A DNA stretch of 32,000 bases from Vibrio vulnificus CMCP6 (GTDB lineage Bacteria > Pseudomonadota > Gammaproteobacteria > Enterobacterales > Vibrionaceae). This document shows, piece after piece, positions 13,345-26,941 of this stretch (the stretch's first letter is position 1; the number at the start of each line of letters is the position of its first letter). Where the stretch lies: NCBI RefSeq assembly GCF_000039765.1, contig NC_004459.3:2001127-2033126 (forward strand), written 5' to 3'. The notes under the pieces were generated by a model. It was not told where the DNA came from, searched no databases, and was given only the letters and a program-made list of their open reading frames with translations. The translations under genes were made by a program, and so were the position numbers.

Positions 13345-14202
13345 TTATTTGGTGTGGTATTGCTCGCAAGCAAGCATGGTGTTTTCGATGAGGCTGGCCA
13401 CCGTCATTGGGCCAACACCACCGGGCACTGGAGTAATGAAGCTGGCGCGTTCACGAGCCTTGTTATACTCCACATCACCAATCAGCTTACCCGATTCAAG
13501 GCGGTTGATGCCGACATCGACCACGATCGCGCCTTCTTTGACCCATTCACCAGGAATGAAATTTGGCTTACCGACCGCAACCACGAGCACATCAGCTTGG
13601 CGAACATGGCCTTCAAGATCTTTCGTGAAGCGGTGACAGGTGGTCGTGGTACAACCTGCCAGCAGAAGCTCGAGTGTCATTGGGCGGCCAACAATGTTTG
13701 ATGCACCCACGATCACCGCATGCTTACCACGTAGTGCGATGTTGTAACGCTCAAGCAGCGTAATGATGCCTTTTGGTGTGCACGAACGCAGTTTAGGGAT
13801 GCGCTGCGCTAAGCGGCCAACGTTGTACGGGTGGAAACCATCCACATCTTTCTCTGGATGAATGCTTTCTAGCACGTGCGTGCTGTCAATGCCCGCAGGA
13901 AGAGGAAGTTGAACCAGAATACCGTCGATTTCAGCATCATTATTGAGCTCATCGATCAGAGCCAGCAGTTCTTCTTCTGAAGTTGAAGCGGGTAGATCAA
14001 ACGATTTAGAGACAAAGCCCACTTCCTCACACGCGCGACGTTTGCTGCCAACGTAAACTTGAGACGCTGGATCTTCGCCAACCAACACAACGGCTAAGCC
14101 AGGCGCACGTAATCCCGCAGCTACACGAGCTTTTACGCGAGCAGCGACTTCGGATCGAACAGTTTGGGAAATGAGAGTTCCATCGATATTTTGAGCAGTC
14201 AT
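13345..14202 (-). CDS. folD: Bifunctional methylenetetrahydrofolate dehydrogenase/cyclohydrolase FolD
   Basis: Start at [12 protein letters not shown] (14202). [49 protein letters not shown]: canonical FolD motifs. Confidence 0.95.
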
Positions 14203-14362
14203 GACTTTCCTTAAGAATACGAATGGCAAAAACTTGGCGCGTATTGTCGCAAATGATCAAATAAATATCTATACGCAAACGTTTGCTTTGGGTCGTTTTT
14301 AAGCATATTTAATGTGGACGCCCTTTTTTTAGCCATTTGATTCAGTTTGTTAAGAAAACCCG

Positions 14363-14390
14363 TTGATTTACCGAAATGAACTCGTATAAT
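14363..14390 (+). promoter_or_regulatory. Sigma70-type promoter of the tRNA-Arg gene
   Basis: TTGATT (14363-14368), 16-nt spacer, TATAAT (14385-14390), 14 nt before the mature tRNA 5' end. Confidence 0.6.
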
Positions 14391-14404
14391 CCTGTCCCTG
14401 TAGC

Positions 14405-14481
14405 GCGCCCTTAGCTCAGCTGGATAGAGCACGTCCCTTCTAAGGATGTGGTCGTAGGTTCGAATCCTACAGGGCGTGCCA
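14405..14481 (+). tRNA. tRNA-Arg (anticodon UCU), CCA encoded
   Basis: Manual cloverleaf: acceptor GCGCCCT/AGGGCGT (G1-U72), D arm GCTC-AGCTGGATA-GAGC, anticodon arm CGTCC-CTTCTAA-GGATG, variable TGGTC, T arm GTAGG-TTCGAAT-CCTAC, discriminator G, then CCA. 77 nt. Confidence 0.95.
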
Positions 14482-14490
14482 TATTCTATA

Positions 14491-14531
14491 AGGCCTGACA
14501 GCTTATTAAGTTGTCAGGCCTTTGTCGTTTT
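14491..14531 (+). terminator. Intrinsic terminator after the tRNA
   Basis: 10-bp perfect stem aggcctgaca/tgtcaggcct followed by tttgtcgtttt. Confidence 0.7.
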
Positions 14532-14540
14532 GGGTGTTTA

Positions 14541-14564
14541 TAGTCGGCTAAGTAGTCGGTTAAG
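14541..14564. repeat. Tandem 12-mer TAGTCGGCTAAG / TAGTCGGTTAAG
   Basis: Two adjacent copies with one mismatch, 60 nt after the tRNA 3' end. Confidence 0.5.
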
Positions 14565-14649
14565 CTTGTAGCTTAATGTAATCATCTGTAATGAATACAT
14601 AAGTTCGCTTTCTTCTCGCGGCTAGGTATTTGAGACTAAAATGCAAATC

Positions 14650-14674
14650 AGCCCCACTGTGAGGCTGATTGATC
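14650..14674 (-). terminator. Hairpin terminating the four-gene operon
   Basis: aatcagcc/ccactgtga/ggctgatt, 4 nt downstream of the stop at 14678. On the minus strand it is followed by tgcatttta (a modest U-tract). Confidence 0.45.
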
Positions 14675-14677
14675 TAT

Positions 14678-15466
14678 TTAATTAGAGTTTTTCCTATAAA
14701 ACACAACCATCTCACTGATTGAATTAAATTTGCTACCAACCTCTTTCCAAACGCACTCTTCACAAAGAAGCCCTCGTCCATATCTTGCTGTTTTCTCACC
14801 GCAGCATAGGCAGATAGGATCATTGGTCTTTATACTGTTTTCTGCAATCTCTGTATCTTTGCATAGTTGTTCTATGGTTGACTCAGGCCAGCGAAGCATT
14901 TCAACTAAGTCTTCCCAATGATTTAAGAGATAGTTGAATACTTCTTCTGAGCTTAATAATTTAACTGGGCTTTTAGATGGATAAAGCTGCCGAGCCATCT
15001 TGTGTGTATCCACTCTTAGGATTATGTCTATATCTTCGGGGACAGCTTCAGGTAACAAATGACGACTGCTCTCGAAAGGGATATCCATCACTACCGATAT
15101 GTTAGAGGTTAAGTCTTTAGTGTATGCATCAACTTGAAATCCAGATTTGGTACATTCAACCTCCCATTGCACATCATTAAAATCCCACTCATCTAAATCA
15201 AAGTTAACTAGAGTTGGGAGCTGTTGCCTTATAATCAGTGCCAATGCAGTAACGGGGGAGAATTCACACTCAGAACTTGTTGTATTTTTATCGGTACGGT
15301 GTGCAAAGTGCCATTGGTTGATATTTCCCAACCTCGCAGTAACTGAGGTTCCACATGATAAACAATGACAGTTGCAATCATCGCCACGCTCCACTTGCTC
15401 AATCCCCACTATTCGGTTTGAACTGTTACTGCGAGCGAAAGGCATAAGGACTTGAAATGAAGACAT
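14678..15466 (-). CDS. CoiA-like (PD-(D/E)xK-type) nuclease candidate with N- and C-terminal zinc-ribbon motifs; fourth gene of the NTase operon
   Basis: 262 aa. CNCHCLSCG-x14-HFAH is the CoiA-family N-terminal signature. Candidate nuclease core QVDAY...ISVVMDIPFESS. C-terminal CLCCGEK...CEEC ribbon. ATG with AGAGG SD; only 11 nt separate it from the upstream stop. Confidence 0.55.
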   Translation of the reverse strand: MSSFQVLMPFARSNSSNRIVGIEQVERGDDCNCHCLSCGTSVTARLGNINQWHFAHRTDKNTTSSECEFSPVTALALIIRQQLPTLVNFDLDEWDFNDVQWEVECTKSGFQVDAYTKDLTSNISVVMDIPFESSRHLLPEAVPEDIDIILRVDTHKMARQLYPSKSPVKLLSSEEVFNYLLNHWEDLVEMLRWPESTIEQLCKDTEIAENSIKTNDPICLCCGEKTARYGRGLLCEECVWKEVGSKFNSISEMVVFYRKNSN

Positions 15467-15477
15467 ATAAAGACCTC

Positions 15478-16599
15478 TTATACGGCTTGCTCTAAGTCAT
15501 CATTAAACTCAGTCAGTCTAATAGATGGCTCTGCGTGGGGTAAGTTAGTAATTGATACCCCCCAAGGGTAAGGGGTTTTGTTATCTTTTTCGTATTGGTA
15601 AATCGTAATGTGAGGAAGGTTCCGTCTGTCGTACGCTTGACCAAATTTGAATGCTACGCTGTTTTGAGAAGCTAATACGAGGTGTATATCGTTATAGCCT
15701 TCTTCCATGAGATTTTTAACTTCTTCGATCAAATCATAAGCTAAACGACTTTGCTTTTTACTTGACCAGTGATTATCAAAACGCTTTTCCCTCAGTTTCA
15801 AATGTATCTGTGGCATCTTTGGAAAACAGAGGTCAATAGCTTTCTCATCAACAGGGTAAGAGAAAGATACAGCAAGAACGATAGATTCTTTGCTATCAGC
15901 ATGCTTTATTGTCTTTTCAAACTTCTCATTGTCGTCACTAATCGGATCGAGTTCTTTCCAGCTTGATAGTTGTCGATCCCAGTCGAGCACTTCAATATGA
16001 GACTCATCATCCAACAAATATCCTGATAGGAAAGCAAAAGGAACAGGAACTAAACCACCATAAACAATGTGAAAATCTTCAGCAGCAACACTATTTCTTC
16101 GCTCTTCTATAGAGTGCTCTAGATTGAGGAATTTCTTAAGTGCTAATTTGGGTTGGCTTACAGTGCCATTGGCAAGACTGTCTCGGATATCTATTACTGT
16201 ATTGGAAATATTTCGGCCTTTGTATTTTTTCTGAACGTGCTCTGATAGTGGTGAGTCAGATGTGTTTACGAGTCCTCTTTGCTCAATAGCGAATACAATT
16301 TGTTTAGCCAATTGTCGGTGTTCTATAACTGAGCGGACTATCTGCCAAGCTAGCCCAGTTGCCATTAGGAGTATACTGAAATAAAAACCGATAGAAACGA
16401 GTAGAGCAGGGACATCAGAACCAGCAACGTCAAGGCTAATGAGTTGGCTAGCTGTTACGTATTGAACATTGAATGCTACGCCTCCCATCAATGTTATCGG
16501 GAAGAAATAGGCTCCTGTCCTGAAAATTAACAAGGCAGGAGAGCGTTTTCTGAATAGCCAGTTGATGGTCTGAACAACGATATAAGTCAAAAGGTTCAT
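15478..16599 (-). CDS. 2TM-SAVED effector (Cap14-like: N-terminal transmembrane helices plus C-terminal SAVED sensor)
   Basis: 373 aa. The N-terminal ~95 aa contain 2-3 hydrophobic helices. The C-terminal part carries SAVED-like repeats (FHIVYGGLVPVPFAFLSGYLL ... IHLVLASQNSVAFKFGQAYDRRNLPHITIYQYE). Its ATG overlaps the upstream TAA by 1 nt (TAATG). Confidence 0.7.
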   Translation of the reverse strand: MNLLTYIVVQTINWLFRKRSPALLIFRTGAYFFPITLMGGVAFNVQYVTASQLISLDVAGSDVPALLVSIGFYFSILLMATGLAWQIVRSVIEHRQLAKQIVFAIEQRGLVNTSDSPLSEHVQKKYKGRNISNTVIDIRDSLANGTVSQPKLALKKFLNLEHSIEERRNSVAAEDFHIVYGGLVPVPFAFLSGYLLDDESHIEVLDWDRQLSSWKELDPISDDNEKFEKTIKHADSKESIVLAVSFSYPVDEKAIDLCFPKMPQIHLKLREKRFDNHWSSKKQSRLAYDLIEEVKNLMEEGYNDIHLVLASQNSVAFKFGQAYDRRNLPHITIYQYEKDNKTPYPWGVSITNLPHAEPSIRLTEFNDDLEQAV

Positions 16600-17090
16600 T
16601 ACTTTCCTTTGTTTGCTGGTTGATGGTGAGAGTTGTTGATTTGATCCATATATTGCTCAATAGTTAGTTCACCAGGGTGAACACCACCACCACGCCATTC
16701 TCCATCTGATAACCAAAGCTCCCAGTACCACAGCCATTCTTGCGTCCATGGGATGATTGATTCAGCGATTAACATACTAGGCACCCAGTCTTTGGAGCTA
16801 CCGTTGTTAAACATTAGGCAGGGTTTAGTATTCCCTTTGGAGAAGAACTCATGAGGTGAGCGCTTCCCTCCTGCTAGATCTCTTAGATTCGGGGACAACA
16901 CCTCGACCTCAGGAATACAACCTAACCCAGCCCATTTAACAAGGATTAGGTATTCTCGGGTAAGTCGAGAAGGTTGTAGTACTTGTCTCCATTCCAGTTT
17001 TAGACCTGTTTTACCTTTGAGTATTCTACCTTTGCCACCATGGTAACGTTTTTGTAGCGCGTTAAGCTGCCTTTGAAGGTGATGGCACAT
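16599..17090 (-). CDS. Small E2 (UBC-fold)-like protein
   Basis: 163 aa. SPH80-x10-C91-LMF...W102VPSMLIAESIIPW mirrors the E2 HPN-x(~9)-C...W..P pattern. Its ATG abuts the NTase stop with zero spacing. Confidence 0.55.
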   Translation of the reverse strand: MCHHLQRQLNALQKRYHGGKGRILKGKTGLKLEWRQVLQPSRLTREYLILVKWAGLGCIPEVEVLSPNLRDLAGGKRSPHEFFSKGNTKPCLMFNNGSSKDWVPSMLIAESIIPWTQEWLWYWELWLSDGEWRGGGVHPGELTIEQYMDQINNSHHQPANKGK

Positions 17091-18347
17091 CTATACATCA
17101 CCGTAGAAGTTGTGTTTAGGAACGGGGGTGGCAGTGGCTGCATTGGATACTCCTAAACCAATAGAAGAAACTACCGCACGATTTTTCGCTCGTCGTTCAG
17201 TCAGAGTGTCCGCAAGTTTGGCTTGGATGCCTCTTGCTGCTTGAGAACCAAACATTTCTCTTGAGCGCTCAATGGTTTTATCAAGCCCTTGATCTAATTC
17301 AAGTAGTTTTGCTAGGTCTTCAGTAACCTGCGTATACCACGCTTTAAATGCTTGGGGTAACATCGGTTTCTCATGCCATTTATCTGCAAAATTCTCCGTA
17401 GGAAGTGCTGGGTTACGAATAGTGTACTTTAAAGTACCGTCAGACTGATATTGATGGGAAATGAAGTTTGGCATTTCTTCAAGTACATCTAACATCAGAT
17501 CAAATGGGTTGTGGTATTCCTTGTTAGAGTTTGAGCACTTTTCATAAGCTAGACCTGCTAGAGTCGTAATAATTATGCTTATTGGTGCGCAATCGCCATA
17601 AGCGTTCTGCTTATTTTGTTTCCACATGTCTCTATGTCGCTTGAGAAGCTGAACTACAATCTGAAGTACAGTCTTTCGACCCTGACCAGGTAACGGTTCT
17701 ACTGTCCCCGCATGTATATCATTATTAGATCTGTAGTTGCTTTTTCTATTCCAGCGAATCTCTTTACTACACGCGCTTCGGAACCACTTCCTATATCCGT
17801 ATGGATGAGAAGGACTATTGGCATCCTTGATGTCTGCAACTCTCACTTTGCTCTTATGGTTTGGCGAGTCCATATCTTCAGGCATGCTAGGGGTGATGTC
17901 CATGTGGAACCCCTGGCCTTCGATACCTCCATATTGCAGAGTGACACATCTGCGTTTTGGCATATTCTCTATTTTGTCACCGTATCGTTGAGAGTCTTTC
18001 AGCACTCGTATCAAATTGAAGAGTAGCTCGTTGGCTTCATCAGTAGTTGTTGGATAGTGCTGACTTGGTAAGTGGAGCACCAGATCTATATCCATGTCTG
18101 AGTCTTCATCAATCGGTTTTACGGATGTGCCAATACCAACACTACCTTGAGCATAAATGTGGCATTCCGCTAGCTTGCCCCCCTGGTTTGCCAAGTAGGA
18201 TCCGATTGCTCGGTAAGCCGTCTTCAATTGAGACAACTGTGTTTCGGTCAAGTCTAGGTTCGATGTGATATGAGAGATCATCTCGAAACAAAATTCTTTA
18301 TCGCTTGCACTTAGTTGTCTTAGTGATTTGAAACCTTGATCTTGCAC
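17091..18347 (-). CDS. Pol-beta superfamily nucleotidyltransferase, CD-NTase/SMODS-like (putative signal synthase)
   Basis: 418 aa. G68-S69 ... D84-M-D86-I-D88 ... FHMD149ITP is the GS/DxD/D catalytic layout of cGAS/DncV-like NTases. GTG start preceded by AGGAGA at 5-nt spacing. Confidence 0.7.
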   Translation of the reverse strand: MQDQGFKSLRQLSASDKEFCFEMISHITSNLDLTETQLSQLKTAYRAIGSYLANQGGKLAECHIYAQGSVGIGTSVKPIDEDSDMDIDLVLHLPSQHYPTTTDEANELLFNLIRVLKDSQRYGDKIENMPKRRCVTLQYGGIEGQGFHMDITPSMPEDMDSPNHKSKVRVADIKDANSPSHPYGYRKWFRSACSKEIRWNRKSNYRSNNDIHAGTVEPLPGQGRKTVLQIVVQLLKRHRDMWKQNKQNAYGDCAPISIIITTLAGLAYEKCSNSNKEYHNPFDLMLDVLEEMPNFISHQYQSDGTLKYTIRNPALPTENFADKWHEKPMLPQAFKAWYTQVTEDLAKLLELDQGLDKTIERSREMFGSQAARGIQAKLADTLTERRAKNRAVVSSIGLGVSNAATATPVPKHNFYGDV

Positions 18348-18401
18348 AGCTATCTCCTAGTGGTTTTGGTTGGTTAATAACCGATTATACCGATTGAGAT
18401 T

Positions 18402-18431
18402 ATTATGATAGATCGAAATGATACGTGTCAA
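18402..18431 (-). promoter_or_regulatory. Candidate sigma70 promoter of the NTase operon
   Basis: On the minus strand: TTGACA (18431-18426), 18-nt spacer, CATAAT (18407-18402), ~55 nt upstream of the GTG. Confidence 0.45.
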
Positions 18432-18458
18432 TGATCTTTTTGTGTATTTGTTTTGTGT

Positions 18459-18468
18459 TGTAATTACA
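18459..18468. promoter_or_regulatory. Perfect 10-bp palindrome TGTAATTACA in the divergent intergenic region (candidate WYL-regulator operator)
   Basis: Self-complementary. Overlaps a possible -35 (TTACAC, 16-nt spacer, TACGAT) for the WYL gene. Flanked by related TACGTGTCAATGAT / TACACGTGATGAT elements. Confidence 0.3.
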
Positions 18469-18520
18469 CGTGATGATTTTTTTGCTACGATCTGGCTAGA
18501 TTGAACAATGGATACGCATC

Positions 18521-19423
18521 ATGGAAAACAGTTCTCAAGCAGACATCACATCAGAGACAACCTCTATTAACGCTCGTTTAGCTTATATTGACTTTAAGTT
18601 GTTTTTTACAGGGCGTGTTAGTCGGGCTGATCTTAAAGATGCGTTTGGAATTGCAGAAGCAGCCGCTTCCCGAGTTCTTACTGAATACTCCAAACGTAGG
18701 CCAAACAACAAAACTCAAAAAACGAATACGATTATCAGGAAATCCTTCGAACCATTGACAGATATAGATGGTGAATTGGCGCTTGGCATGCTTGCCAATG
18801 GATTTAATAGCAACAAGATCTTCGGTGTTACTGAGCTTGCCTATGAAAAGATTGGCAAGTTTCCCAACCAAATGAATACCAATGAAGTCGCTATGATTAC
18901 TAGGGCGATATCGGGTAAGTATGCGATTTCCTGCAACTATCTTTCTGAAAACAGCTCTAATCATCAAACTAGAACCTTAGTTCCGTTGGCAATTATGTAT
19001 GATGGAACCAGTTGGATGTTCAGAGCATTTGATCGTTCAGAAGTCAAAAAGAATAAATTTAAAAACTTCCATTTTGCTCGTGTTAGGAATGTGGTTGAAG
19101 AACATGAATCTAAGGAGTCTAGGCAGCATGATCATGAGGCTTTAGCTCAAGATAAGCTGTGGAACTTAAGGTTACCTTTGATCTTAAAACTCCACCCCTC
19201 GTTGTCAGAGATGGACAAGCAAAAAGTAAGAACTGACTTTGGTATACCTGAAGATAAAGATGAGGTTTATGTTACAGAGAAAGCTGCATTTAGATGGATT
19301 GTTGAGAAAAAGTGGTATATCGATGCTCGGTCAAATGAAGAAAAGCGAGAGGATAAGCAAAGTCGTTTTTATAAGTTCGAGCTAAGCAACTTGGAAATGA
19401 TAAAACAAATGGAACAGGCCTAA
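18521..19423 (+). CDS. WYL-domain transcriptional regulator (CapW/BrxR-like: wHTH, WYL, C-terminal extension)
   Basis: 300 aa. N-terminal HTH-like RADLKDAFGIAEAAASRVLTEY. WYL-type core LVPLAIMYDGTSWMFRAFDRS...FKNFHFARVRNV. Divergent from the NTase operon. Confidence 0.7.
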   Translation: MENSSQADITSETTSINARLAYIDFKLFFTGRVSRADLKDAFGIAEAAASRVLTEYSKRRPNNKTQKTNTIIRKSFEPLTDIDGELALGMLANGFNSNKIFGVTELAYEKIGKFPNQMNTNEVAMITRAISGKYAISCNYLSENSSNHQTRTLVPLAIMYDGTSWMFRAFDRSEVKKNKFKNFHFARVRNVVEEHESKESRQHDHEALAQDKLWNLRLPLILKLHPSLSEMDKQKVRTDFGIPEDKDEVYVTEKAAFRWIVEKKWYIDARSNEEKREDKQSRFYKFELSNLEMIKQMEQA

Positions 19424-19688: not shown

Positions 19689-21371
19689 TTATACTGCTCG
19701 CTCAACAATTGCATCGGTGAGGTGTAATTGGGTGATTTGAGACTCTCGAAGTCTGACTTTTAAGCGCTCACATATACTGAGCAAGTCACTAACTTTTTCT
19801 GTGATACGGACTTGTTCATTTAGAGGAGGAAGCGGTAAGTGCATTTCACCAACATCACTCAACCTAAAGCTATTTTTAATACCTCGTTGTGGAGCATCAA
19901 ACTGATATTTAGCTAGTGGAGACCTCATAAAATCAGGGAAGTATTTTCCTTGGCATTCTGGCATAAATCGTAATAAGCACGTATGTTGGTTTATGTATGC
20001 TTCACCAAACTCTTCAGGAATTAATCCCAAGTTACCGACATCACCTGTTATGGAAATTAATAGATCTCGCGCCTCCAATTTAGTTCGAGAGCCTTCGCCC
20101 CCTTTAGGTGGGCGTACAAACCTTAAATTGTCTAAACGCAGCTCGTAGCTGCCTCGGGATAAATTGCCCATGGTGACAAATAGAGCACCAGAGTCAGAGT
20201 AATATTTAGCCCAATCTCGAGAACCCGATGTAGTAAATAGAGCTACATCTTGAATTCGACACCACTCCCAGCCACTCGGCAGTTCAAACGGCTTTTCATC
20301 TTCAGCAATCGGCGGCAGCGCTTTTTGCTTCTTGATTTTCTTATCTTTGACTAACTGCGCTTTTTCATCCGCAATTCTTTTCAGTAACTCAGCAGCAGGC
20401 TCATCGCTTGGATCTTGTGGAACCAACTTACCCATTACCGCCAGTTGTAAGATGGTTTGTTTAAGCTGGTCGATACTCTCTTCAGTGCTGAATAAGGTAT
20501 CGAAATGCTCACTGATTCGCGCCCAGTTTTGCATTAACTCGTCAGCATCGGCAGAGTTGGTGAGTGTGTCCAACAGTGTTGTTACCAGCAATTGATGCGC
20601 TTCAATACTGGCTTCGGTTTGCTGCTCTAGTTGGTCGCAGAGCGCCATTAGCTCATCGACTTTGGCGACGATGCGGTGTTGCTCGTCGGAAGGGGGGATA
20701 CAAACTACTAGCGCGTTAGCTTCATTTCTATTTAAGCCTGGTTTTATACCCTTTCCGAGTGAGTCTAACCCTAAAGTTTGTAAATGTAGAAAACAATACT
20801 TAAGGCTTATACCTACAGGTGGTATTAAGCTGTAGGCTACATCTGTAACCCAGCAAGGTTGGTCACTTAAATTAATTGCACCCGCAGATCCTTTACGACC
20901 GATAACGAGACAAGGGCTACCAACAGAAAAAAGATTGTGAGTCCCTACAGAACCATTAGAGCCATAGACTAAAAATTCACCACTTTCAGTACGTTTTGCT
21001 TTTGGGAGATTATCCCCATAAACCAAGCTATAAATATCACCAAAATAACAAGCTTGCCAACCTTCTGGTAAAGCAAACGTTATATCTTGTTTTTTAATAG
21101 CAGGGAGCTTTTTGGGCTTTGTAATTTTTTTTTCTTTAATTAACTGCGTTTTTTCCTCTGAAATCCGTTGAAGTAAAAAAGATGCAGGTTCATCGTTTGG
21201 GTTTTGAGGAACGAGTTTGCCGCGAACTGCTAGTTCTAAAATTAGCTCACGCAGCTTCTTAACACCGTAAAGCTCTAGTTTCTTGCTGCTACCGCGACCA
21301 GAGGTCGATTTGGTCTTTACTGCCGAAGTCCAGATATCAATATGCTCGGTAATCAGGTTTTCGACTGCCAT
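19689..21371 (-). CDS. hsdS: Type I restriction-modification specificity subunit HsdS
   Basis: 560 aa with two variable TRDs. Two copies of the conserved spacer LAV(R/M)GKLVPQ(N/D)P(N/S)DEPA..LL.RI..EK.QL(I/V)K(E/D)KKI.K.K.LP. 1-nt overlap with the hsdM stop. Confidence 0.9.
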   Translation of the reverse strand: MAVENLITEHIDIWTSAVKTKSTSGRGSSKKLELYGVKKLRELILELAVRGKLVPQNPNDEPASFLLQRISEEKTQLIKEKKITKPKKLPAIKKQDITFALPEGWQACYFGDIYSLVYGDNLPKAKRTESGEFLVYGSNGSVGTHNLFSVGSPCLVIGRKGSAGAINLSDQPCWVTDVAYSLIPPVGISLKYCFLHLQTLGLDSLGKGIKPGLNRNEANALVVCIPPSDEQHRIVAKVDELMALCDQLEQQTEASIEAHQLLVTTLLDTLTNSADADELMQNWARISEHFDTLFSTEESIDQLKQTILQLAVMGKLVPQDPSDEPAAELLKRIADEKAQLVKDKKIKKQKALPPIAEDEKPFELPSGWEWCRIQDVALFTTSGSRDWAKYYSDSGALFVTMGNLSRGSYELRLDNLRFVRPPKGGEGSRTKLEARDLLISITGDVGNLGLIPEEFGEAYINQHTCLLRFMPECQGKYFPDFMRSPLAKYQFDAPQRGIKNSFRLSDVGEMHLPLPPLNEQVRITEKVSDLLSICERLKVRLRESQITQLHLTDAIVERAV

Positions 21372-22861
21372 TATTGTTCTCCACCTTGCTTTTTACCTTG
21401 AATGGTAGAGCTAAGAGCATCACCGAGAATGCTTTTCAGTTGGTCACGCAGTGCTTTGATGTCTTGTTGTTGCTGCTGATAGTTCGCCAGCAACTCTTCA
21501 GGGTCATGGCTGACGACTTCGTCCTGATACGGGTTTTTAATATCAAGGTTAAAGTTGCGCTCGATAATATCTTCAATCGACACTTTCCAAGCTTGCTTGG
21601 TCTCGATGCGGCTAGCGAATCCATCTGCCTCGTTGCCCCACCAATCGATCTCTTGCTGGAACTCCTCAAACTTCATCGGTTTGGTTTTGCTGTAGTTCTT
21701 CACGCCTTCTGGGTAAGGGTGCTCATAGAACCACACTTCTTTGGTCGGTTGGCCTTTGGTAAAGAACAGAATGTTGGTCTTAATACCTGTGTATGGGTTG
21801 AACACGCCATTAGGTAAGCGAACAATCGTGTGCAGGTTACACTCTTCCGTCAGCATCTTTTTGATTTTGGTTTTTACACCTTCACCAAACAAGGTGCCAT
21901 CAGGCAACACTACACCTGCGCGACCCTCTTTATCCAATACTTCGACAATAAGTTGCAAGAACAAATCGGCCGTTTCACGAGTTTGCATTTCGGCAGGGAA
22001 GTTCTTTTCAATCCCGTCCTCTTCTGTACCGCCAAACGGTGGGTTAGTCGCAATCACGTTGATATTGCTATCCCAACTTGAAAGCGGCTTATTGAGCGTG
22101 TTGCCATGCTTAATCTGCACAGGGACTTCGATGCCGTGGAGCATCATATTGGTGATACACAGCAAATGTGGCAGTTGTTTCTTCTCTACACCATGAATTT
22201 GCTTTTGCAGTGTTTGGTGGTCGGCTGCGCTTGTCACGTAGTTCTCTTTGACGTGATCGAACGAGCAAGCTAAGAAACCGCCCGTGCCGCAAGCGGGATC
22301 CATAATTTGCTCACCTAGCTTTGGATCCAGTCTGTTGACGATAAAACGAGTCACCGCGCGAGGGGTATAGAACTCACCCGCATTACCTGCACTTTGTAGG
22401 TCGCGTAGGATTTGTTCATAGATATCACCAAACAGGTGGCGTTCTTTAGAGTCAGTAAAGTCGATTTCGTTGAGCTTGTTAATCACTTGACGAAGCAGTG
22501 TGCCATTTTTCATGTAGTTGAAGGCATCACTAAAAGCTTCTTTCACCACAAAACCGCGTGGGTTGGTGTCTTTCGGTGCGGTTAGGTTTTTTAACGTCGG
22601 GAATAGGTCATCATTGATAAATTCCAGCAGCTCGTCACCTGTAATGCCTTGGTTATCTGCCGCCCAGTTACGCCAAAGGTACTTGGCTGGGATGGGTTCG
22701 CGGTAATCATCTAACTCGAACTCTAGCTCTTCCTCTTGGGCATCAAACACTTTAAGGAATAAAAGCCACGACATTTGGCCTAGACGCTGCGCGTCACCAT
22801 CAACACCCGCATCTTTACGCATGATGTCTTGAATAGACTTGATAACTGAACTGATTGACAT
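21371..22861 (-). CDS. hsdM: Type I R-M N6-adenine DNA methyltransferase HsdM
   Basis: 496 aa. HsdM N-terminal domain (IQDIMRKDAGVDGDAQRLGQMSWLLFLK), SAM motif DPACGTGGFL, catalytic NPPFG. Confidence 0.95.
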   Translation of the reverse strand: MSISSVIKSIQDIMRKDAGVDGDAQRLGQMSWLLFLKVFDAQEEELEFELDDYREPIPAKYLWRNWAADNQGITGDELLEFINDDLFPTLKNLTAPKDTNPRGFVVKEAFSDAFNYMKNGTLLRQVINKLNEIDFTDSKERHLFGDIYEQILRDLQSAGNAGEFYTPRAVTRFIVNRLDPKLGEQIMDPACGTGGFLACSFDHVKENYVTSAADHQTLQKQIHGVEKKQLPHLLCITNMMLHGIEVPVQIKHGNTLNKPLSSWDSNINVIATNPPFGGTEEDGIEKNFPAEMQTRETADLFLQLIVEVLDKEGRAGVVLPDGTLFGEGVKTKIKKMLTEECNLHTIVRLPNGVFNPYTGIKTNILFFTKGQPTKEVWFYEHPYPEGVKNYSKTKPMKFEEFQQEIDWWGNEADGFASRIETKQAWKVSIEDIIERNFNLDIKNPYQDEVVSHDPEELLANYQQQQQDIKALRDQLKSILGDALSSTIQGKKQGGEQ

Positions 22862-22899
22862 GGAGTTCTACTGCTAATTGACTGAAAAAATTGGGGCTG

Positions 22900-22908
22900 A
22901 TTATAGCA
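22900..22908 (-). promoter_or_regulatory. Extended -10 element TGCTATAAT upstream of hsdM
   Basis: Minus-strand TGnTATAAT ~40 nt upstream of the hsdM ATG. No good -35. Confidence 0.35.
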
Positions 22909-23024
22909 GAAATGGGTCGAAGAAAATGAACTTATCGCTATGAAACTATGTTTGTAATTGTGGTTTAATAATGAATCAGTGATATAAATTAAATAATAAA
23001 AAATATAATCAGGTTGTCTAGAAA

Positions 23025-23423
23025 ATGAAGGTTGAGTGTCCCCATTGTCACACTGACAATGTTATTGAATATGCAGAGAATATCTCGTGTGAGAAGTGTG
23101 AAAAAAGCTTCAAAGGCTTTAAATTTAGTAAACGGAAACTGGTGTCTGCCAGTACGGCATTGGTCGTGGGCGTGGTTGGTGGTTATAAGGTGAATGGTGC
23201 TTTTGATGAAGAGCGTTACCCATTAGAAGTAGAGTATGCCATCGTTGATACCTGCATAAACTCGTCAAAAAATATGGTGTCGGTGAGTTGGTATGAGAGT
23301 AAGCGAGAAACGTGTTTATGCGCTCTTTCACAAACGGAAAAGTCTGTGCCGTATTCCGATTACAAATCTGATCAAAACTTGTTTTTGAGTAACTTCAAGC
23401 TGAATGCGAGAAGTTGTTCATAA
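23025..23423 (+). CDS. Hypothetical zinc-ribbon / single-pass membrane protein
   Basis: 132 aa. CPHC-x15-CEKC ribbon, one hydrophobic helix (SASTALVVGVVGGY), Cys-containing C-terminal domain. Confidence 0.5.
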   Translation: MKVECPHCHTDNVIEYAENISCEKCEKSFKGFKFSKRKLVSASTALVVGVVGGYKVNGAFDEERYPLEVEYAIVDTCINSSKNMVSVSWYESKRETCLCALSQTEKSVPYSDYKSDQNLFLSNFKLNARSCS

Positions 23424-23426
23424 TAG

Positions 23427-23455
23427 AAAAATGAGGCAGCTAGACTGCCTCATTT
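23427..23455. terminator. Bidirectional terminator
   Basis: atgaggcag/ctaga/ctgcctcat with an A4 tract upstream (a T-run on the minus strand). Follows both the 132-aa gene (+) and the small-ORF pair (-). Confidence 0.55.
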
Positions 23456-23468
23456 ATATCTAATGTGC

Positions 23469-23579
23469 TTAGCGTTTAGGTGTGTTGCCTCGACCTTTGC
23501 CTGAAGGCTTGCCAGTTGTGCTTGGGTAGTTTGGATTACCTTTCGGCGCAGTCTTTGGTGCAGAACTTGGTTTTGCCAT
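23469..23579 (-). CDS. Unannotated 36-aa Pro/Lys/Gly-rich basic ORF
   Basis: MAKPSSAPKTAPKGNPNYPSTTGKPSGKGRGNTPKR. GGAG lies 8 nt upstream, overlapping the stop of the preceding 49-aa ORF. Followed by a terminator. Confidence 0.35.
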   Translation of the reverse strand: MAKPSSAPKTAPKGNPNYPSTTGKPSGKGRGNTPKR

Positions 23580-23590
23580 GATGGTTACTC

Positions 23591-23740
23591 CTATTTACCT
23601 TGTTTTTGGTTGTTGGCAGCAGCGCGTTGAGCGCGAGCCGCGAATGAATCTTTAGAGACTTGTCCGCCATTTTGTTTTGCTTGATTCGCTTGAATACGAG
23701 CAGCGGCTTCAGGAGTCATTGGTGCTTTGTTTTTAGACAT
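23591..23740 (-). CDS. Unannotated 49-aa hydrophilic Ala/Gln-rich ORF
   Basis: MSKNKAPMTPEAAARIQANQAKQNGGQVSKDSFAARAQRAAANNQKQGK. AAGGA lies 7 nt upstream of the ATG. Reminiscent of a single SMP/LEA-type repeat (memory only). Confidence 0.45.
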   Translation of the reverse strand: MSKNKAPMTPEAAARIQANQAKQNGGQVSKDSFAARAQRAAANNQKQGK

Positions 23741-23815
23741 AGTATTTTCCTTTTCATTAATTGAATGCTTGTCTCCGCTGAGACCATTGCATAGTAACTA
23801 GTAGGGTAGGGACAA

Positions 23816-24184
23816 ATGGGGACAACCCAAAAACAAAAGCAAATTCGAACTATGTTGGATGCGTTAGGCTGGAGCCATAAGCAACTGGCCGATGTTCTTT
23901 ACGAAGAACTTCAGTGTTCTGAATATGAAGACATAGAAGATGCTTCCCCTCAGGAAATTCGGAAGTTTAGAGAGGTTCTCAAGAAGCAGTTACAAAGGGA
24001 ATCTACCCCAGAAAGTCGGCTTGAACAGTACGTGAAAATCATTTCGGAACATCCAGATTTTGTTGCATTGGGGTTGGATGTCGTGGTTCCAAAATACGTT
24101 AACCATAGATGCTTGAATGAGGATTCGCTTGCAGGGCTAGCAGAGATATCCAGTTGGCTGGATGATAGGGAGCAGGTAGGTTAA
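23816..24184 (+). CDS. Hypothetical protein with an HTH-like N-terminus
   Basis: 122 aa. IRTMLDALGWSHKQLADVL resembles an XRE-type helix-turn-helix. Divergent from the small-ORF pair. Terminator follows. Confidence 0.5.
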   Translation: MGTTQKQKQIRTMLDALGWSHKQLADVLYEELQCSEYEDIEDASPQEIRKFREVLKKQLQRESTPESRLEQYVKIISEHPDFVALGLDVVVPKYVNHRCLNEDSLAGLAEISSWLDDREQVG

Positions 24185-24210
24185 AAAACGGCTAAATAGC
24201 CGTTTTGTTC
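24185..24210 (+). terminator. Intrinsic terminator after the 122-aa gene
   Basis: aaaacggcta/aa/tagccgtttt followed by gttct. Confidence 0.55.
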
Positions 24211-24266
24211 TAATTTCTTGAGTTTGTTGGTTGGCCCAGTGAAGTCGAAAGTTAGACAAACTGTTG

Positions 24267-25595
24267 TCACGATTGGATTTCAGCAGCTTGTATATCATCC
24301 GCTTTGCTACGTAGAGCTAGGTACAACACCCAAGTGATTAGCGCATCAGCAGTAATGCCCAAGCCGAACATTATGGCGATTCGTTCAAGCGTAGGTACAA
24401 AGATACCGATTTGATAAAGCACAAAAGCACAACCGTAAAACAAGGTGTTTACGATAAGTGATTGATACAGCATTAAATCCGTGCGTCCAATACCATAAAA
24501 GTAACTGTCGATGACATTGTTTAAACTGAAAATGACATAGAACCCAACCATTAGCCAAACTAGACTGGTGATTGATTCTGGGTTCTCTATCCCCATGACA
24601 TCGGCTATAAAGCTGTTCCAAAGCGGTGCGGTTAGTATCCAAATAGCAATAATTCCCAACGTTATCCAAAGGTAGCAATTGACTCGCTCCGATGTTAATC
24701 CATTATTTGTTGCAGCATCTTGCTTAACCAGTTGCCCTAATGTCAAAACGGGAAGTAGTAGCCAGCCCCAAATAAATTGATTAGCAACCCAGAATGTTCC
24801 CGCTTGTTGTACTTGGTTAATAAGCTGAAGAATCATGACAATAAAGGCAGTATTTCGCACGAGTGACTCAAGCCCTGACTTCCATCCAATCTTTGCCCAT
24901 TCTTTGAGCCATTGCGACTGCTCTCCTTTAGAAAACTTGAAGCTCAGAGTGATCCCTGATTTAGATAAATAAATCAGGGCAAACAGTGCGAGAAGACTAT
25001 TGACTACGATATTACTCAGAGCAATACCATTCACTCCAAACTGAAGGGAGTAAGGTAGTTGACTGACGAAGACGCTGTCACAAAGGACAGTCATGAGCAT
25101 TTGTACTATTAGAAGGCCATACAGCGCCTTTCGTTCATTTCTTAGGACGAGAACCAAAGACAAAAAAGCATAGAAGCTGGAGAGCAAAATAGCGGCAGAT
25201 TCCAATCGAATGTATTGGATCGTTTGGGTCAATAATTCAGCCTGTTGCTGCATAGCATCTACAAAATTCGGGGCTAGCCACAATACCATTAAGGTCACCA
25301 CAAAGTAGCAAATTAAGGTAACCAAAAGAGATAGACTGGCTCGTTCGCGAAAAGCTTCATTACTATGAATAACTCTGCCTAGAATAAATGCTAGAGGGAT
25401 AAGTAATGCTTCGCTGAGGACTTCATATCCTACATTTAGCCATGCAACTTGTGCTGCAATGCTAAAAGTCCATGGGCTAGGGATGCTGCCCAAGAAATGG
25501 ATTCGTGTAGTTGAGTAGATTAATGGTATTAAGCTTGTCAGAATCAGCACTAGCCACAGTTGGTAGTTGATTGTTTTTATTTGATGATGTTTCAA
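24267..25595 (-). CDS. Polytopic membrane protein, MATE/MOP-superfamily-like (exporter or flippase type)
   Basis: 442 aa, hydrophobic throughout with many (about 10-12 by eye) TM segments. TTG start 3 nt after the upstream stop, with AAGG upstream, suggesting translational coupling. Confidence 0.55.
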   Translation of the reverse strand: MKHHQIKTINYQLWLVLILTSLIPLIYSTTRIHFLGSIPSPWTFSIAAQVAWLNVGYEVLSEALLIPLAFILGRVIHSNEAFRERASLSLLVTLICYFVVTLMVLWLAPNFVDAMQQQAELLTQTIQYIRLESAAILLSSFYAFLSLVLVLRNERKALYGLLIVQMLMTVLCDSVFVSQLPYSLQFGVNGIALSNIVVNSLLALFALIYLSKSGITLSFKFSKGEQSQWLKEWAKIGWKSGLESLVRNTAFIVMILQLINQVQQAGTFWVANQFIWGWLLLPVLTLGQLVKQDAATNNGLTSERVNCYLWITLGIIAIWILTAPLWNSFIADVMGIENPESITSLVWLMVGFYVIFSLNNVIDSYFYGIGRTDLMLYQSLIVNTLFYGCAFVLYQIGIFVPTLERIAIMFGLGITADALITWVLYLALRSKADDIQAAEIQS

Positions 25596-25598
25596 TTT

Positions 25599-26885
25599 TT
25601 AAGCCTTGTTATCTTCACTAGGGATCTCGTGGAGAAAGCAACTCTCCACAGAGAAATAGCCATTACTTTTAATCAGTTGTTTCTTTCTAAGCCGTTCGAA
25701 CAGTGTGATTAGGTACTGATAAAGCTCAGTATATTGCGCTGTACTGATATGAGTTGCTGAGCAGTTAAATACTTGCCATGGGAAATTAATCAATGTTGTA
25801 GCGGCATGTTTGGGAAGGTAGTTGTGTTTAAACTCACTTAGCAATAAATGTTCTAGCTGAACACAATAGTGCTGGATGATAGAGCAGTGAAAGTGGTACT
25901 TGTAACTGTCGTTGTTAGCGATAAGGTTCGGTAAGGAGCAAAATAAAAAGTAAACCTGAGCGGCCAACTCTTTGGCTTGCTTTCGCTCGCTTGTATGTGT
26001 TTTGGTAACGGCGTCTAATTGTTCTGCAAGACCAAGCTCACCCTTTAAAATAGTGAAATGAACGTTGTAGATTTGTGACTCACGATAATAAAGAGAAATG
26101 TCAGACAGCGATTGGCCTATAACGATTTCTATAAGCAAACGGTCTTGTGTCCTAAGAGTGATTTTCGACCCCAAAATATCGGTATGAGCCACTTGTTCAC
26201 CGAACAATCTAAGGAGTCTTTCATGCCAACCTTGAACCGAAATCGATGACTGAATAAATAAATCGATATCAGAGCGCTTTGTTAACTGATTAGCCCCCAA
26301 GCTTCCGTAAAGTAGAGCTATAGGTACGCTTGTATCTGTGCTCAATACTTTATTCAGCTTACTGACCCAAGTGTGTTGAGATAATGGGAAGGCCGTCCAG
26401 AAGGCATCAAAGTTATCAGAGAAGTCAAAACTGTAAGACTGCCAAATCTGTCTTTGCCAGTGAGTTTCTAGCTCTATCGGTATGATTTTATCTTCCAAAA
26501 ATCTAATAGTTTCATCAACAGCTTGCAGTTTTTTGTAGGATGATGGGTAAGGGATTTCTGAGTATTTCTCGTCATCAATTGCATTGATGCTCTGCTCAAT
26601 ATCTCTAGTGCAACAGATTAATATGCCTGTTTTCCTATCTAATTGATTGGTAAGAAGGCTAGCTGTTTGACCGTATCCTGTAAATTCAACAATAGCGTTT
26701 TCCTGTTGTTTAACCGCAGCAAGGAAATGCTCACAAGCAAGTTGCTCACCTTGCTCGGTTCCATCGCCAAAGCGAATTCGATACTCATCTAAAGATAAAT
26801 AAGGGAACTCAGGCAAACGTCCTTGTATTTGTTTACTTAACGTTGTTTTACCTGAATTTAGGTTACCAAAAATATAGATATGCAT
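25599..26885 (-). CDS. Fusion protein: N-terminal P-loop NTPase/kinase-like domain, pol-beta nucleotidyltransferase domain, helical C-terminal domain
   Basis: 428 aa. Walker A G7NLNSGKTT. NTase signature YG194S-x10-D206ID208LF. All-helical C-terminal ~170 aa. Lies 56 nt downstream of hsdR on the same strand. Confidence 0.6.
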   Translation of the reverse strand: MHIYIFGNLNSGKTTLSKQIQGRLPEFPYLSLDEYRIRFGDGTEQGEQLACEHFLAAVKQQENAIVEFTGYGQTASLLTNQLDRKTGILICCTRDIEQSINAIDDEKYSEIPYPSSYKKLQAVDETIRFLEDKIIPIELETHWQRQIWQSYSFDFSDNFDAFWTAFPLSQHTWVSKLNKVLSTDTSVPIALLYGSLGANQLTKRSDIDLFIQSSISVQGWHERLLRLFGEQVAHTDILGSKITLRTQDRLLIEIVIGQSLSDISLYYRESQIYNVHFTILKGELGLAEQLDAVTKTHTSERKQAKELAAQVYFLFCSLPNLIANNDSYKYHFHCSIIQHYCVQLEHLLLSEFKHNYLPKHAATTLINFPWQVFNCSATHISTAQYTELYQYLITLFERLRKKQLIKSNGYFSVESCFLHEIPSEDNKA

Positions 26886-26902
26886 TGTGACTTGAGGTCG
26901 TT

Positions 26903-26931
26903 AACCAAGCTAAAGAAACTCTAGCTTGGTT
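26903..26931 (-). other. 10-bp perfect hairpin between hsdR and the P-loop/NTase gene, without a U-tract
   Basis: aaccaagcta/9-nt loop/tagcttggtt. On the minus strand it is followed by aacgacc, so it is not a canonical intrinsic terminator and read-through from hsdR is plausible. Confidence 0.4.
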
Positions 26932-26941
26932 TAAATGGTGA

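Follow-up and report, generated by a model that had tools for sequence, protein, structure and literature searches.

The CBASS locus and its last gene

The window analyzed here is a stretch of 32,000 nt from the genome of Vibrio vulnificus CMCP6 (contig NC_004459.3, positions 2,001,127 to 2,033,126 of the forward strand; coordinates below count from its first nucleotide), and the gene in question, hereafter the target gene, occupies positions 14678-15466 on the minus strand and encodes, as read from its open reading frame (ORF) and translation, a protein of 262 aa. It follows, in the same orientation, the genes of a cyclic-oligonucleotide-based antiphage signaling system (CBASS), and the first-pass annotation had proposed it as a CoiA-like nuclease and fourth gene of that system. 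Upstream of it lie, all on the minus strand, genes for a CBASS effector with two transmembrane segments and a SAVED domain (2TM-SAVED, 15478-16599; Pfam SAVED 3e-38 and Saf_2TM 1e-23, PADLOC PDLC00707 3.5e-142), for an E2-only Cap2-like protein of the short type II CBASS kind (16599-17090; PADLOC E2 model PDLC00863 1.8e-46, with Pfam E2-CBASS precomputed for this gene in identical loci) and for a cGAS/DncV-like nucleotidyltransferase (CD-NTase, 17091-18347; Pfam DncV-like NTFase and SMODS, PADLOC cyclase model PDLC00780 1.2e-103). A WYL/BrxR-type (CapW-like) regulator is encoded divergently (18521-19423, plus strand; Pfam WYL, with WHD_BrxR and WYL domains in the regulator of identical loci), and the best promoter-like site is found at 18431-18402. 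Because it joins a CD-NTase, an E2-only Cap2-like protein, a 2TM-SAVED effector and a divergent WYL/BrxR gene, the locus is, as judged from its domain content, a short type II CBASS with a CapW-like regulator. It is flanked on one side by a type I restriction-modification (R-M) system (hsdS, hsdM and hsdR, 19689-29419) and on the other by folD and a tRNA-Arg(TCT) gene (14405-14481, plus strand, found by ARAGORN), a chromosomal landmark beside the island.

The target gene starts 11 nt past the end of the 2TM-SAVED gene, and its Shine-Dalgarno (SD) sequence AAGAGG (15479-15474), read directly from the minus strand, overlaps the SAVED stop codon TAA (15480-15478) as had been noted, with a gap of 7 nt between GAGG and the ATG (15466-15464). 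Eight nucleotides after the target stop begins a terminator-like hairpin (14670-14646, minus strand, located by consensus scan and RNAfold) with an 11-bp stem of -15.2 kcal/mol and a T-rich tail; it marks the operon end and is the sole minus-strand terminator-like site within 14200-18700, so that the earlier remark on a single terminator after the gene was also borne out. The target gene is thus probably co-transcribed with the CBASS operon and probably coupled to it in translation. As a caveat on co-transcription, a promoter-like hexamer pair lies within the SAVED gene (15801-15772, 10/12 matches) and could also drive the target gene independently, the count of such promoter-like sites being not above that of shuffled sequence.

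A chance ORF was ruled out by the homologues of the protein, found at 95%, 79% and 43-53% identity, and by a ratio of nonsynonymous to synonymous substitution rates (dN/dS) of 0.15 against the copy of Vibrio splendidus, a value equal to that of the SAVED gene. Moreover, Pfam CoiA_N (PF25164) matches residues 32-62 with 31.5 bits, above the gathering cut-off of 26.3 (E 1.3e-7), and the identical protein is present on many contigs of Vibrio parahaemolyticus, V. vulnificus and the harveyi group. On these grounds the ORF is a genuine gene under purifying selection.

Zinc modules and the extent of the homology to CoiA

Regular expressions recovered all three segments on which the first-pass annotation relied, namely CxCxCxxC-x14-HFAH (C31-N-C33-H-C35-LS-C38-x14-H53FAH56), MDIPFES (M127DIPFES133) and a C-terminal CxxC-x12-CxxC (C219LCC222-x12-C235EEC238); the CoiA-type signature is genuine in the sense that CoiA_N scores above its Pfam threshold. 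The first segment belongs to a predicted beta-rich zinc-binding module formed by residues 1-68 (15263-15466, minus strand), whose ligands are conserved in 151 aligned sequences: the probable ligands are C31, C33, C35, C38, H53, H56 and C67, all of them invariant or nearly so except for position 53, which is His or Cys among the relatives. At the other end of the protein, residues 196-262 (14681-14881, minus strand) comprise a variable linker (~196-215) and a putative zinc ribbon (C219/C222/C235/C238) with two helices. In the full-length AlphaFold2 model linker residues 198-214 have a predicted local distance difference test score (pLDDT) below 50, and the four C-terminal cysteines are kept in ~90% of the members of the superfamily described below. 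In a family profile search the ribbon showed a weak likeness to the ribosomal S14/S29 zinc ribbon; against all chains of the PDB the same profile gave zinc-ribbon matches at chance level alone.

CoiA_N was found in all 19 members of the Vibrio family examined, and a search relaxed to E<=10 detected no further domain in the target or in its 18 relatives. Specifically, PF06054, the nuclease domain of CoiA, was absent from these proteins (0/19 at E<=10) and from the wider relatives (0/121 at E<=1e-3). We also aligned the profiles by hhalign with genuine CoiA, for which streptococcal database proteins carrying both PF25164 and PF06054 were fetched and aligned; the match covers ~55 N-terminal residues, with a probability of 52% for the Vibrio family and 95% for the superfamily, and stops upstream of the nuclease domain, with the qualification that the CoiA profile was of low diversity and a very remote homology may have escaped it. 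By these profile comparisons the homology between the target and CoiA is confined to the N-terminal zinc module, and since the alignment with genuine CoiA ends at ~55 N-terminal residues, the CoiA signature reads as a portable zinc module and not as a marker of a nuclease.

Genuine CoiA is a single-stranded DNA (ssDNA) endonuclease (bioRxiv 10.1101/2024.02.06.579203) with a PD-ExQ active site (PMC1189080), whose catalytic residues in Streptococcus pneumoniae are D95 and E105 (bioRxiv 10.1101/2024.02.06.579203). That the target could be a true CoiA orthologue, a D-loop or ssDNA endonuclease of competence, is suggested by the Pfam CoiA_N match and by the label 'competence protein CoiA family protein' which NCBI and UniRef give to it. 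We rejected this candidate for its lack of the nuclease domain, which is missing from every member, and for the short overlap just described; moreover, CoiA is a protein of the Bacillota (see also PMC3424549), other bacteria including V. cholerae using YraN (bioRxiv 10.1101/2024.02.06.579203), and the target family resides on mobile elements away from competence genes, all of which makes orthology with CoiA improbable in the extreme. Many NCBI records of the family bear another name, 'phosphatidylinositol kinase', which appears to be a propagated annotation error, because no kinase domain was found in the family by Pfam or NCBIfam.

The central domain

Residues 69-195 (14882-15262, minus strand) are predicted by AlphaFold2 to form an alpha/beta domain carrying D113 and, within MDIPFES, D128. 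The full-length model reached a pLDDT of 80.6 and a predicted template modeling score (pTM) of 0.66, and that of residues 66-195 alone reached 92.1 and 0.85, respectively. In the models a helix (71-85) and a short hairpin precede three strands (102-107, 110-117 and 124-128); after a long loop come a further strand (148-152), two helices (154-161 and 173-187) and a last strand (188-192). Foldseek against the PDB returned nothing significant with either the full-length or the domain-only model; the weak matches of the central domain, none of them significant, were enriched in PD-(D/E)xK (restriction-endonuclease-like) enzymes. Thus the structural check advised by the first-pass annotation yielded a confident model and left the nuclease fold unconfirmed. 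Structural matches in BFVD were significant (E 1e-6 to 3e-5, TM-score ~0.4) and fell on unnamed viral proteins, among them EsV-1-12 of the eukaryotic Ectocarpus siliculosus virus 1.

The step from the CoiA signature to a PD-(D/E)xK nuclease, taken in that annotation, did not survive: besides the missing PF06054 and the short hhalign overlap, the motif check found no D-x(10-16)-[DE]-x-[KQ] in the target protein, and the candidate acids are not conserved. D113 is kept in 124/132 distant relatives and is Gly in 4/19 members of the Vibrio family; D128 is acidic within that family alone, Tyr or Phe standing at its position in the wider superfamily, and it is followed by an invariant Ile-Pro instead of x-Lys or x-Gln. 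As read from the alignments, the canonical PD-(D/E)xK catalytic motif is absent from the target. A migrated Lys/Arg, for which the invariant R80 of helix 1 is a candidate, may serve as catalytic residue, and the near-universality of D113 hints at an ancestral catalytic site. On the models, a nuclease fold of the central domain is possible and unconfirmed.

These same residues bear on a second explanation, by which the protein would bind DNA through its zinc fingers without being an enzyme, for example as a regulator or nucleoid-associated factor of mobile elements, its central domain being a dead scaffold. The zinc ligands are the only residues invariant across the superfamily, D113 is lost in those 4/19 members, position 128 is non-acidic outside the family, and neither a (D/E)xK nor an ExQ motif is present; in addition, the neighbour of enterobacterial relatives on IncHI1B plasmids is hha, and that of Vibrio relatives an HU-like or H-NS gene. 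The retention of D113 in the distant relatives suggests, on the other side, a functional acidic site, the operon already has its WYL regulator, and a helix-turn-helix or other classical regulator domain is not present, so we regard a purely non-enzymatic protein as unlikely.

As the homing endonuclease I-Bth0305I was among the weak fold matches and the distribution of the gene is sporadic, a free-standing homing-endonuclease-like insertion was also contemplated; it was rejected, the gene having diverged in step with the flanking SAVED gene.

A superfamily of mobile elements

A profile search of a representative library gave 12 full-length clusters at E<1e-30, and ~2,220 clusters (50% identity) matched at E<=1e-3, mostly across the N-terminal ~90 residues. 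Since the hhalign match between the Vibrio family and 121 distant relatives spans 243 columns (probability 100%, E 8.3e-41), the target is assigned by profile comparison, over its full length, to a large uncharacterised superfamily that combines the zinc module, a central domain and the C-terminal zinc ribbon. CoiA_N is present in 118/121 of the superfamily representatives, and Pfam DUF7828 and DUF7830 overlap with the superfamily. The target received no assignment from NCBIfam, PHROGs or PADLOC, tblastn against a phage genome collection gave no match, and a metagenome scan gave two short contigs alone. In a plasmid collection searched by tblastn, 2,758 plasmids encode at least the N-terminal module, of which 1,817 are conjugative.

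About 2,700 of the plasmids are enterobacterial and mostly conjugative (Klebsiella, Escherichia, Salmonella, Enterobacter) and encode proteins that have the N-terminal zinc module alone in common with the target; on a Klebsiella pneumoniae IncHI1B plasmid (L014, 5986-7053) the 355-aa gene lies directly after an hha/ymoA gene and near repB. A distant superfamily member (P0033; L034, 6001-9303) belongs to an integrative element and immediately precedes umuD-like, umuC-like and SRAP (YedK-like) genes, with a BrxR-type WYL gene nearby. The N-termini of three other distant members (P0047, P0092 and P0134) weakly matched the PADLOC model of Druantia DruB over its initial ~55 positions (E 0.002-0.05), and DruB may begin with the same CoiA_N-type zinc module.

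Close homologues of the target all come from Vibrio or Enterovibrio, where they occupy prophages, plasmids, integrative and conjugative elements (ICEs) and defence islands. The distant relatives, with 26-53% identity to the target, are found in diverse settings: in V. alginolyticus at a prophage end between tail genes and a serine recombinase; on pVA1-type plasmids of acute hepatopancreatic necrosis disease (AHPND) just after an ABC-three-component system, where the relative has been annotated merely as 'CoiA-like protein' (PMC7409025); after a GmrSD-like gene; in the vicinity of Tra genes, HU-like genes and a SIR2-HerA system on conjugative elements; among consecutive small ORFs of plasmid-like character; and in an element with ParA and DUF2913. 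Most target homologues, in the contexts examined, are not beside any CBASS.

Such settings raise the explanation that the protein helps conjugative plasmids, ICEs and prophages to become established or to counter defence, acting on their own incoming ssDNA or against host immunity, its adjacency to CBASS being accidental. Relatives lie near Tra/NikA-relaxase regions and in small co-directional ORF runs typical of leading regions, two thirds or so of the plasmids with an N-terminal-module homologue are conjugative (the 1,817/2,758 given above), and the common module comes from a protein that handles incoming ssDNA, CoiA. The target gene, however, is chromosomal here, where it shares the orientation of a defence operon, is apparently coupled to it in translation and evolves under purifying selection; why an anti-defence gene should be expressed together with host defence is hard to see, and no match to known anti-defence families was obtained. 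We therefore give this explanation little credence and deem it quite improbable.

Distribution with respect to CBASS

A reverse survey was carried out by scanning with a 2TM-SAVED alignment, keeping one genome per species, which gave 15 loci. CD-NTase, E2 and SAVED are all present in 14/15, no E2 ORF being detected in the remaining one (L030). Thirteen of the 15 CBASS loci are without a family member inside 6 kb, and the gene that follows SAVED varies; the two exceptions are Enterovibrio coralii, described below, and Arsukibacterium, where a 434-aa CoiA_N protein is encoded on the opposite strand, 3 kb from the CBASS. The target gene does not co-vary with CD-NTase across either its own family or the related CBASS loci. 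Moreover, no SAVED, CARF or other known nucleotide-sensor domain was found in the target by Pfam or PADLOC, and a second effector activated by cyclic nucleotides was ruled out for want of a sensor domain.

We consider it roughly an even chance (probability about 0.5) that the target is a DNA-binding, possibly nucleolytic cargo protein which acts independently of the cyclic-nucleotide signal. It would be a zinc-dependent nucleic-acid-binding member of the mobile-element superfamily, with a central alpha/beta domain possibly derived from a restriction-endonuclease-like fold, and its gene an autonomous one, which in one Vibrio lineage was captured at the tail of a short type II CBASS operon under WYL control. 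The protein would bind, and possibly cut, foreign DNA as it enters or replicates, adding a layer of defence or serving in competition between mobile elements, and would be neither sensor, effector nor regulator of the CBASS. Nucleic-acid binding is suggested because conservation is concentrated on the two zinc modules and because CoiA, which shares the N-terminal one, is an ssDNA endonuclease; the cargo status is suggested by the unrelated contexts of the relatives, the 13/15 CBASS loci without the gene, the lack of a sensor domain and the precedent of Avs8B, treated below. Among the three roles once proposed for the gene, that of an independent passenger of the operon, the third, fits best, and those of a DNA-targeting effector or a sensor fit less well.

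Conserved linkage within one Vibrio lineage

A number of observations weigh against reading the gene as independent cargo, most of them coming from the closest relatives. The five genes recur in unchanged order in V. splendidus (L005). By blastn the window and L005 share a colinear block of 4.75 kb at 76% nucleotide identity between unrelated flanks, limited by the 3' end of the WYL gene (window 19419) and the 3' end of the target gene, and the five proteins of the block are equally diverged, at 77-82% identity. The SD sequence over the stop codon and the 11-nt spacer between SAVED and the target gene are conserved in V. splendidus, and the synonymous divergence (dS) of the target gene from the V. 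splendidus copy, 0.97, is similar to that of SAVED, 0.85. All 23 of the contigs read that encode the exact window protein (23/23) have the layout R-M / WYL / CBASS / target gene / folD. Linkage to CBASS is thus tight and old within this lineage, that is, among relatives at least 78% identical, and these are the only operon-linked ones. In Enterovibrio coralii (L031), moreover, a family member 26-35% identical to the target lies 1.5 kb downstream of a homologous CBASS, an association that could reflect a recurrent functional tie. To these must be added that the candidate catalytic residues are, by alignment, not conserved, that the protein may not cut at all, and that the neighbourhood is weak evidence for a defence role, defence genes being common in mobile-element cargo.

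Across window positions 14678-19423, the proportion of synonymous differences (pS) from L005 is ~0.8 (saturated) for the WYL and CD-NTase genes, while SAVED and the target gene stand at ~0.5, and a more recent exchange may have affected the 3' half of the shared block.

Much of this evidence is what one would expect if the protein were a true CBASS accessory in this lineage, whether it senses phage DNA and primes the CD-NTase/E2 step, serves as a second effector directed at DNA or modulates the 2TM-SAVED protein. The apparent translational coupling, the single terminator after the gene, the conserved five-gene block with its edges at gene ends in two genomic contexts, the equal protein divergence with dS near that of SAVED, the constant arrangement on the contigs and the homologue near the Enterovibrio CBASS all favour an accessory. 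The absence of the gene from 13/15 related CBASS loci and the position of most family members far from any CD-NTase tell against it, as do the lack of a cyclic-nucleotide-binding domain and of a match to any Cap family, and the dispensability of the analogous Avs8B. Regarding E. coralii, the member lies behind a phospholipase-C-like gene, a 146-aa ORF and a hairpin, and since it is far more diverged (<=35%) than the CBASS proteins of that locus (49-74%), it suggests a separate acquisition into the same island. We judge a role as CBASS accessory to be unlikely, and the designation as a fourth gene of CBASS stands for one Vibrio lineage and fails elsewhere; likewise, the proposed survey of neighbourhoods found the linkage in the relatives at least 78% identical and, beyond them, other contexts, with the one distant relative 1.5 kb from a CBASS. 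We retain the autonomous DNA-binding cargo protein as our preferred reading.

Other genes of these loci

The E. coralii locus (L031, 1953-13065) is a defence island that begins with a PvuRts1I-like SRA endonuclease, WYL, CD-NTase, E2 and 2TM-SAVED genes and continues with the zinc-dependent phospholipase-C-like gene, the 146-aa ORF, the CoiA_N member and a type I-F CRISPR-Cas system (Csy4, Csy2); an additional effector may be encoded by the phospholipase-like gene next to SAVED. A candidate for a small fourth gene of another kind in this CBASS subtype is an ORF of 91-92 aa that overlaps the SAVED stop by 4 nt, always at the same position, in Shewanella, Pseudoalteromonas and Arsukibacterium (L021, L022 and L028, 7089-7367).

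Within the R-M locus of the window, two minus-strand genes (24267-26885) stand between hsdR (26942-29419) and hsdM (21371-22861), one encoding a 428-aa protein with a Pol-beta-type nucleotidyltransferase domain and the other a 442-aa protein with a weak MatE-like match alone; this pair may be an additional defence module. The length of hsdS differs among otherwise identical loci (582, 560 and 572 aa; L038, L039 and L040, 1036-2796, compared with window 19689-21371), and therefore the specificity subunit of the R-M system varies while the CBASS block next to it is fixed.

Significance of the family

Ancillary genes are the basis on which CBASS operons are classified, and a new subtype would have to be recognised if the target were truly a fourth component; the evidence argues against it here. 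What the analysis brings out is a large family of zinc-finger proteins, as yet without study, whose genes lie on plasmids, prophages and defence islands and tend to stand at the tail of defence operons, and for which the automatic labels 'CoiA family' and 'phosphatidylinositol kinase' mislead. It is conceivable, and we think doubtful, that the superfamily is a new and widespread class of single-gene, zinc-dependent factors of DNA-targeting immunity or inter-element competition which repeatedly dock 3' of unrelated defence operons. Docking of this kind would be exemplified by the CBASS described here, the ABC-three-component system of pVA1 and the GmrSD-like genes, Avs8 being a possible further case if Avs8B is a member, and the substrate of such factors might be single-stranded DNA on entry or DNA undergoing recombination, in analogy to CoiA in transformation. 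The superfamily would gain in interest if it were indeed a widespread defence or competition module. Members are carried by the shrimp-pathogenic pVA1 plasmids and by strains of V. parahaemolyticus and V. vulnificus, so genetic tests are feasible.

Comparison with known systems

The CBASS core of the window is of a known type, and the target resembles the known CBASS ancillary genes (Cap2/Cap3, HORMA/TRIP13, Cap6-8, CapW, CapH/CapP) in its operon position within a CBASS locus; it differs from them in that it has no sequence match to any. The first-pass annotation was right to see in it no named Cap accessory, no PADLOC model matching the target at E<=1, and by profile searches it corresponds to no catalogued Cap or defence protein.

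With CoiA of Streptococcus and Bacillus, which carries PF25164 and PF06054, the target has in common the N-terminal zinc module, with CxxC...HFAH and the Cys-x-(F/Y)-S that follows. CoiA, however, continues into a PD-ExQ nuclease domain and a CoiA C-terminal region, whereas the target has another central domain and a zinc ribbon, and CoiA belongs to a competence regulon while the target family belongs to Vibrio mobile elements.

The CoiA_N/DUF7828/DUF7830 proteins of plasmids and ICEs have the same three-part architecture as the target, match its profile over the full length and are likewise abundant on mobile elements; the IncHI1B protein WP_014386530.1 (355 aa) is homologous to it in the N-terminal part alone (~residues 5-72). 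Unlike the rest of the superfamily, the Vibrio branch is without the conserved KxWxYHPR-like motif, and has an acidic residue 128 and an invariant I-P-F. The superfamily is without functional study, apart from the possibly related Avs8B.

Avs8B (PD-lambda-4B) of Escherichia coli ECOR07 has a CoiA N-terminal module by HHpred (PMC9519451 supplement), and its gene is directly downstream of that of the STAND NTPase (signal transduction ATPase with numerous domains) Avs8A; it is dispensable for defence against lambda and inactive alone (bioRxiv 10.1101/2025.07.02.662641). Like the target, it combines an N-terminal CoiA-type zinc module with an otherwise unassignable body, and its gene is co-oriented with, and immediately downstream of, a defence gene; unlike the target, its partner is a STAND NTPase and not a CBASS. 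The common module is known solely from the published HHpred table, and PADLOC models compared with the target and ten distant relatives gave no match apart from weak ones such as the DruB N-terminus, none of them linking to PD-lambda-4B. Avs8B provides a published example that operon position is not proof of function.

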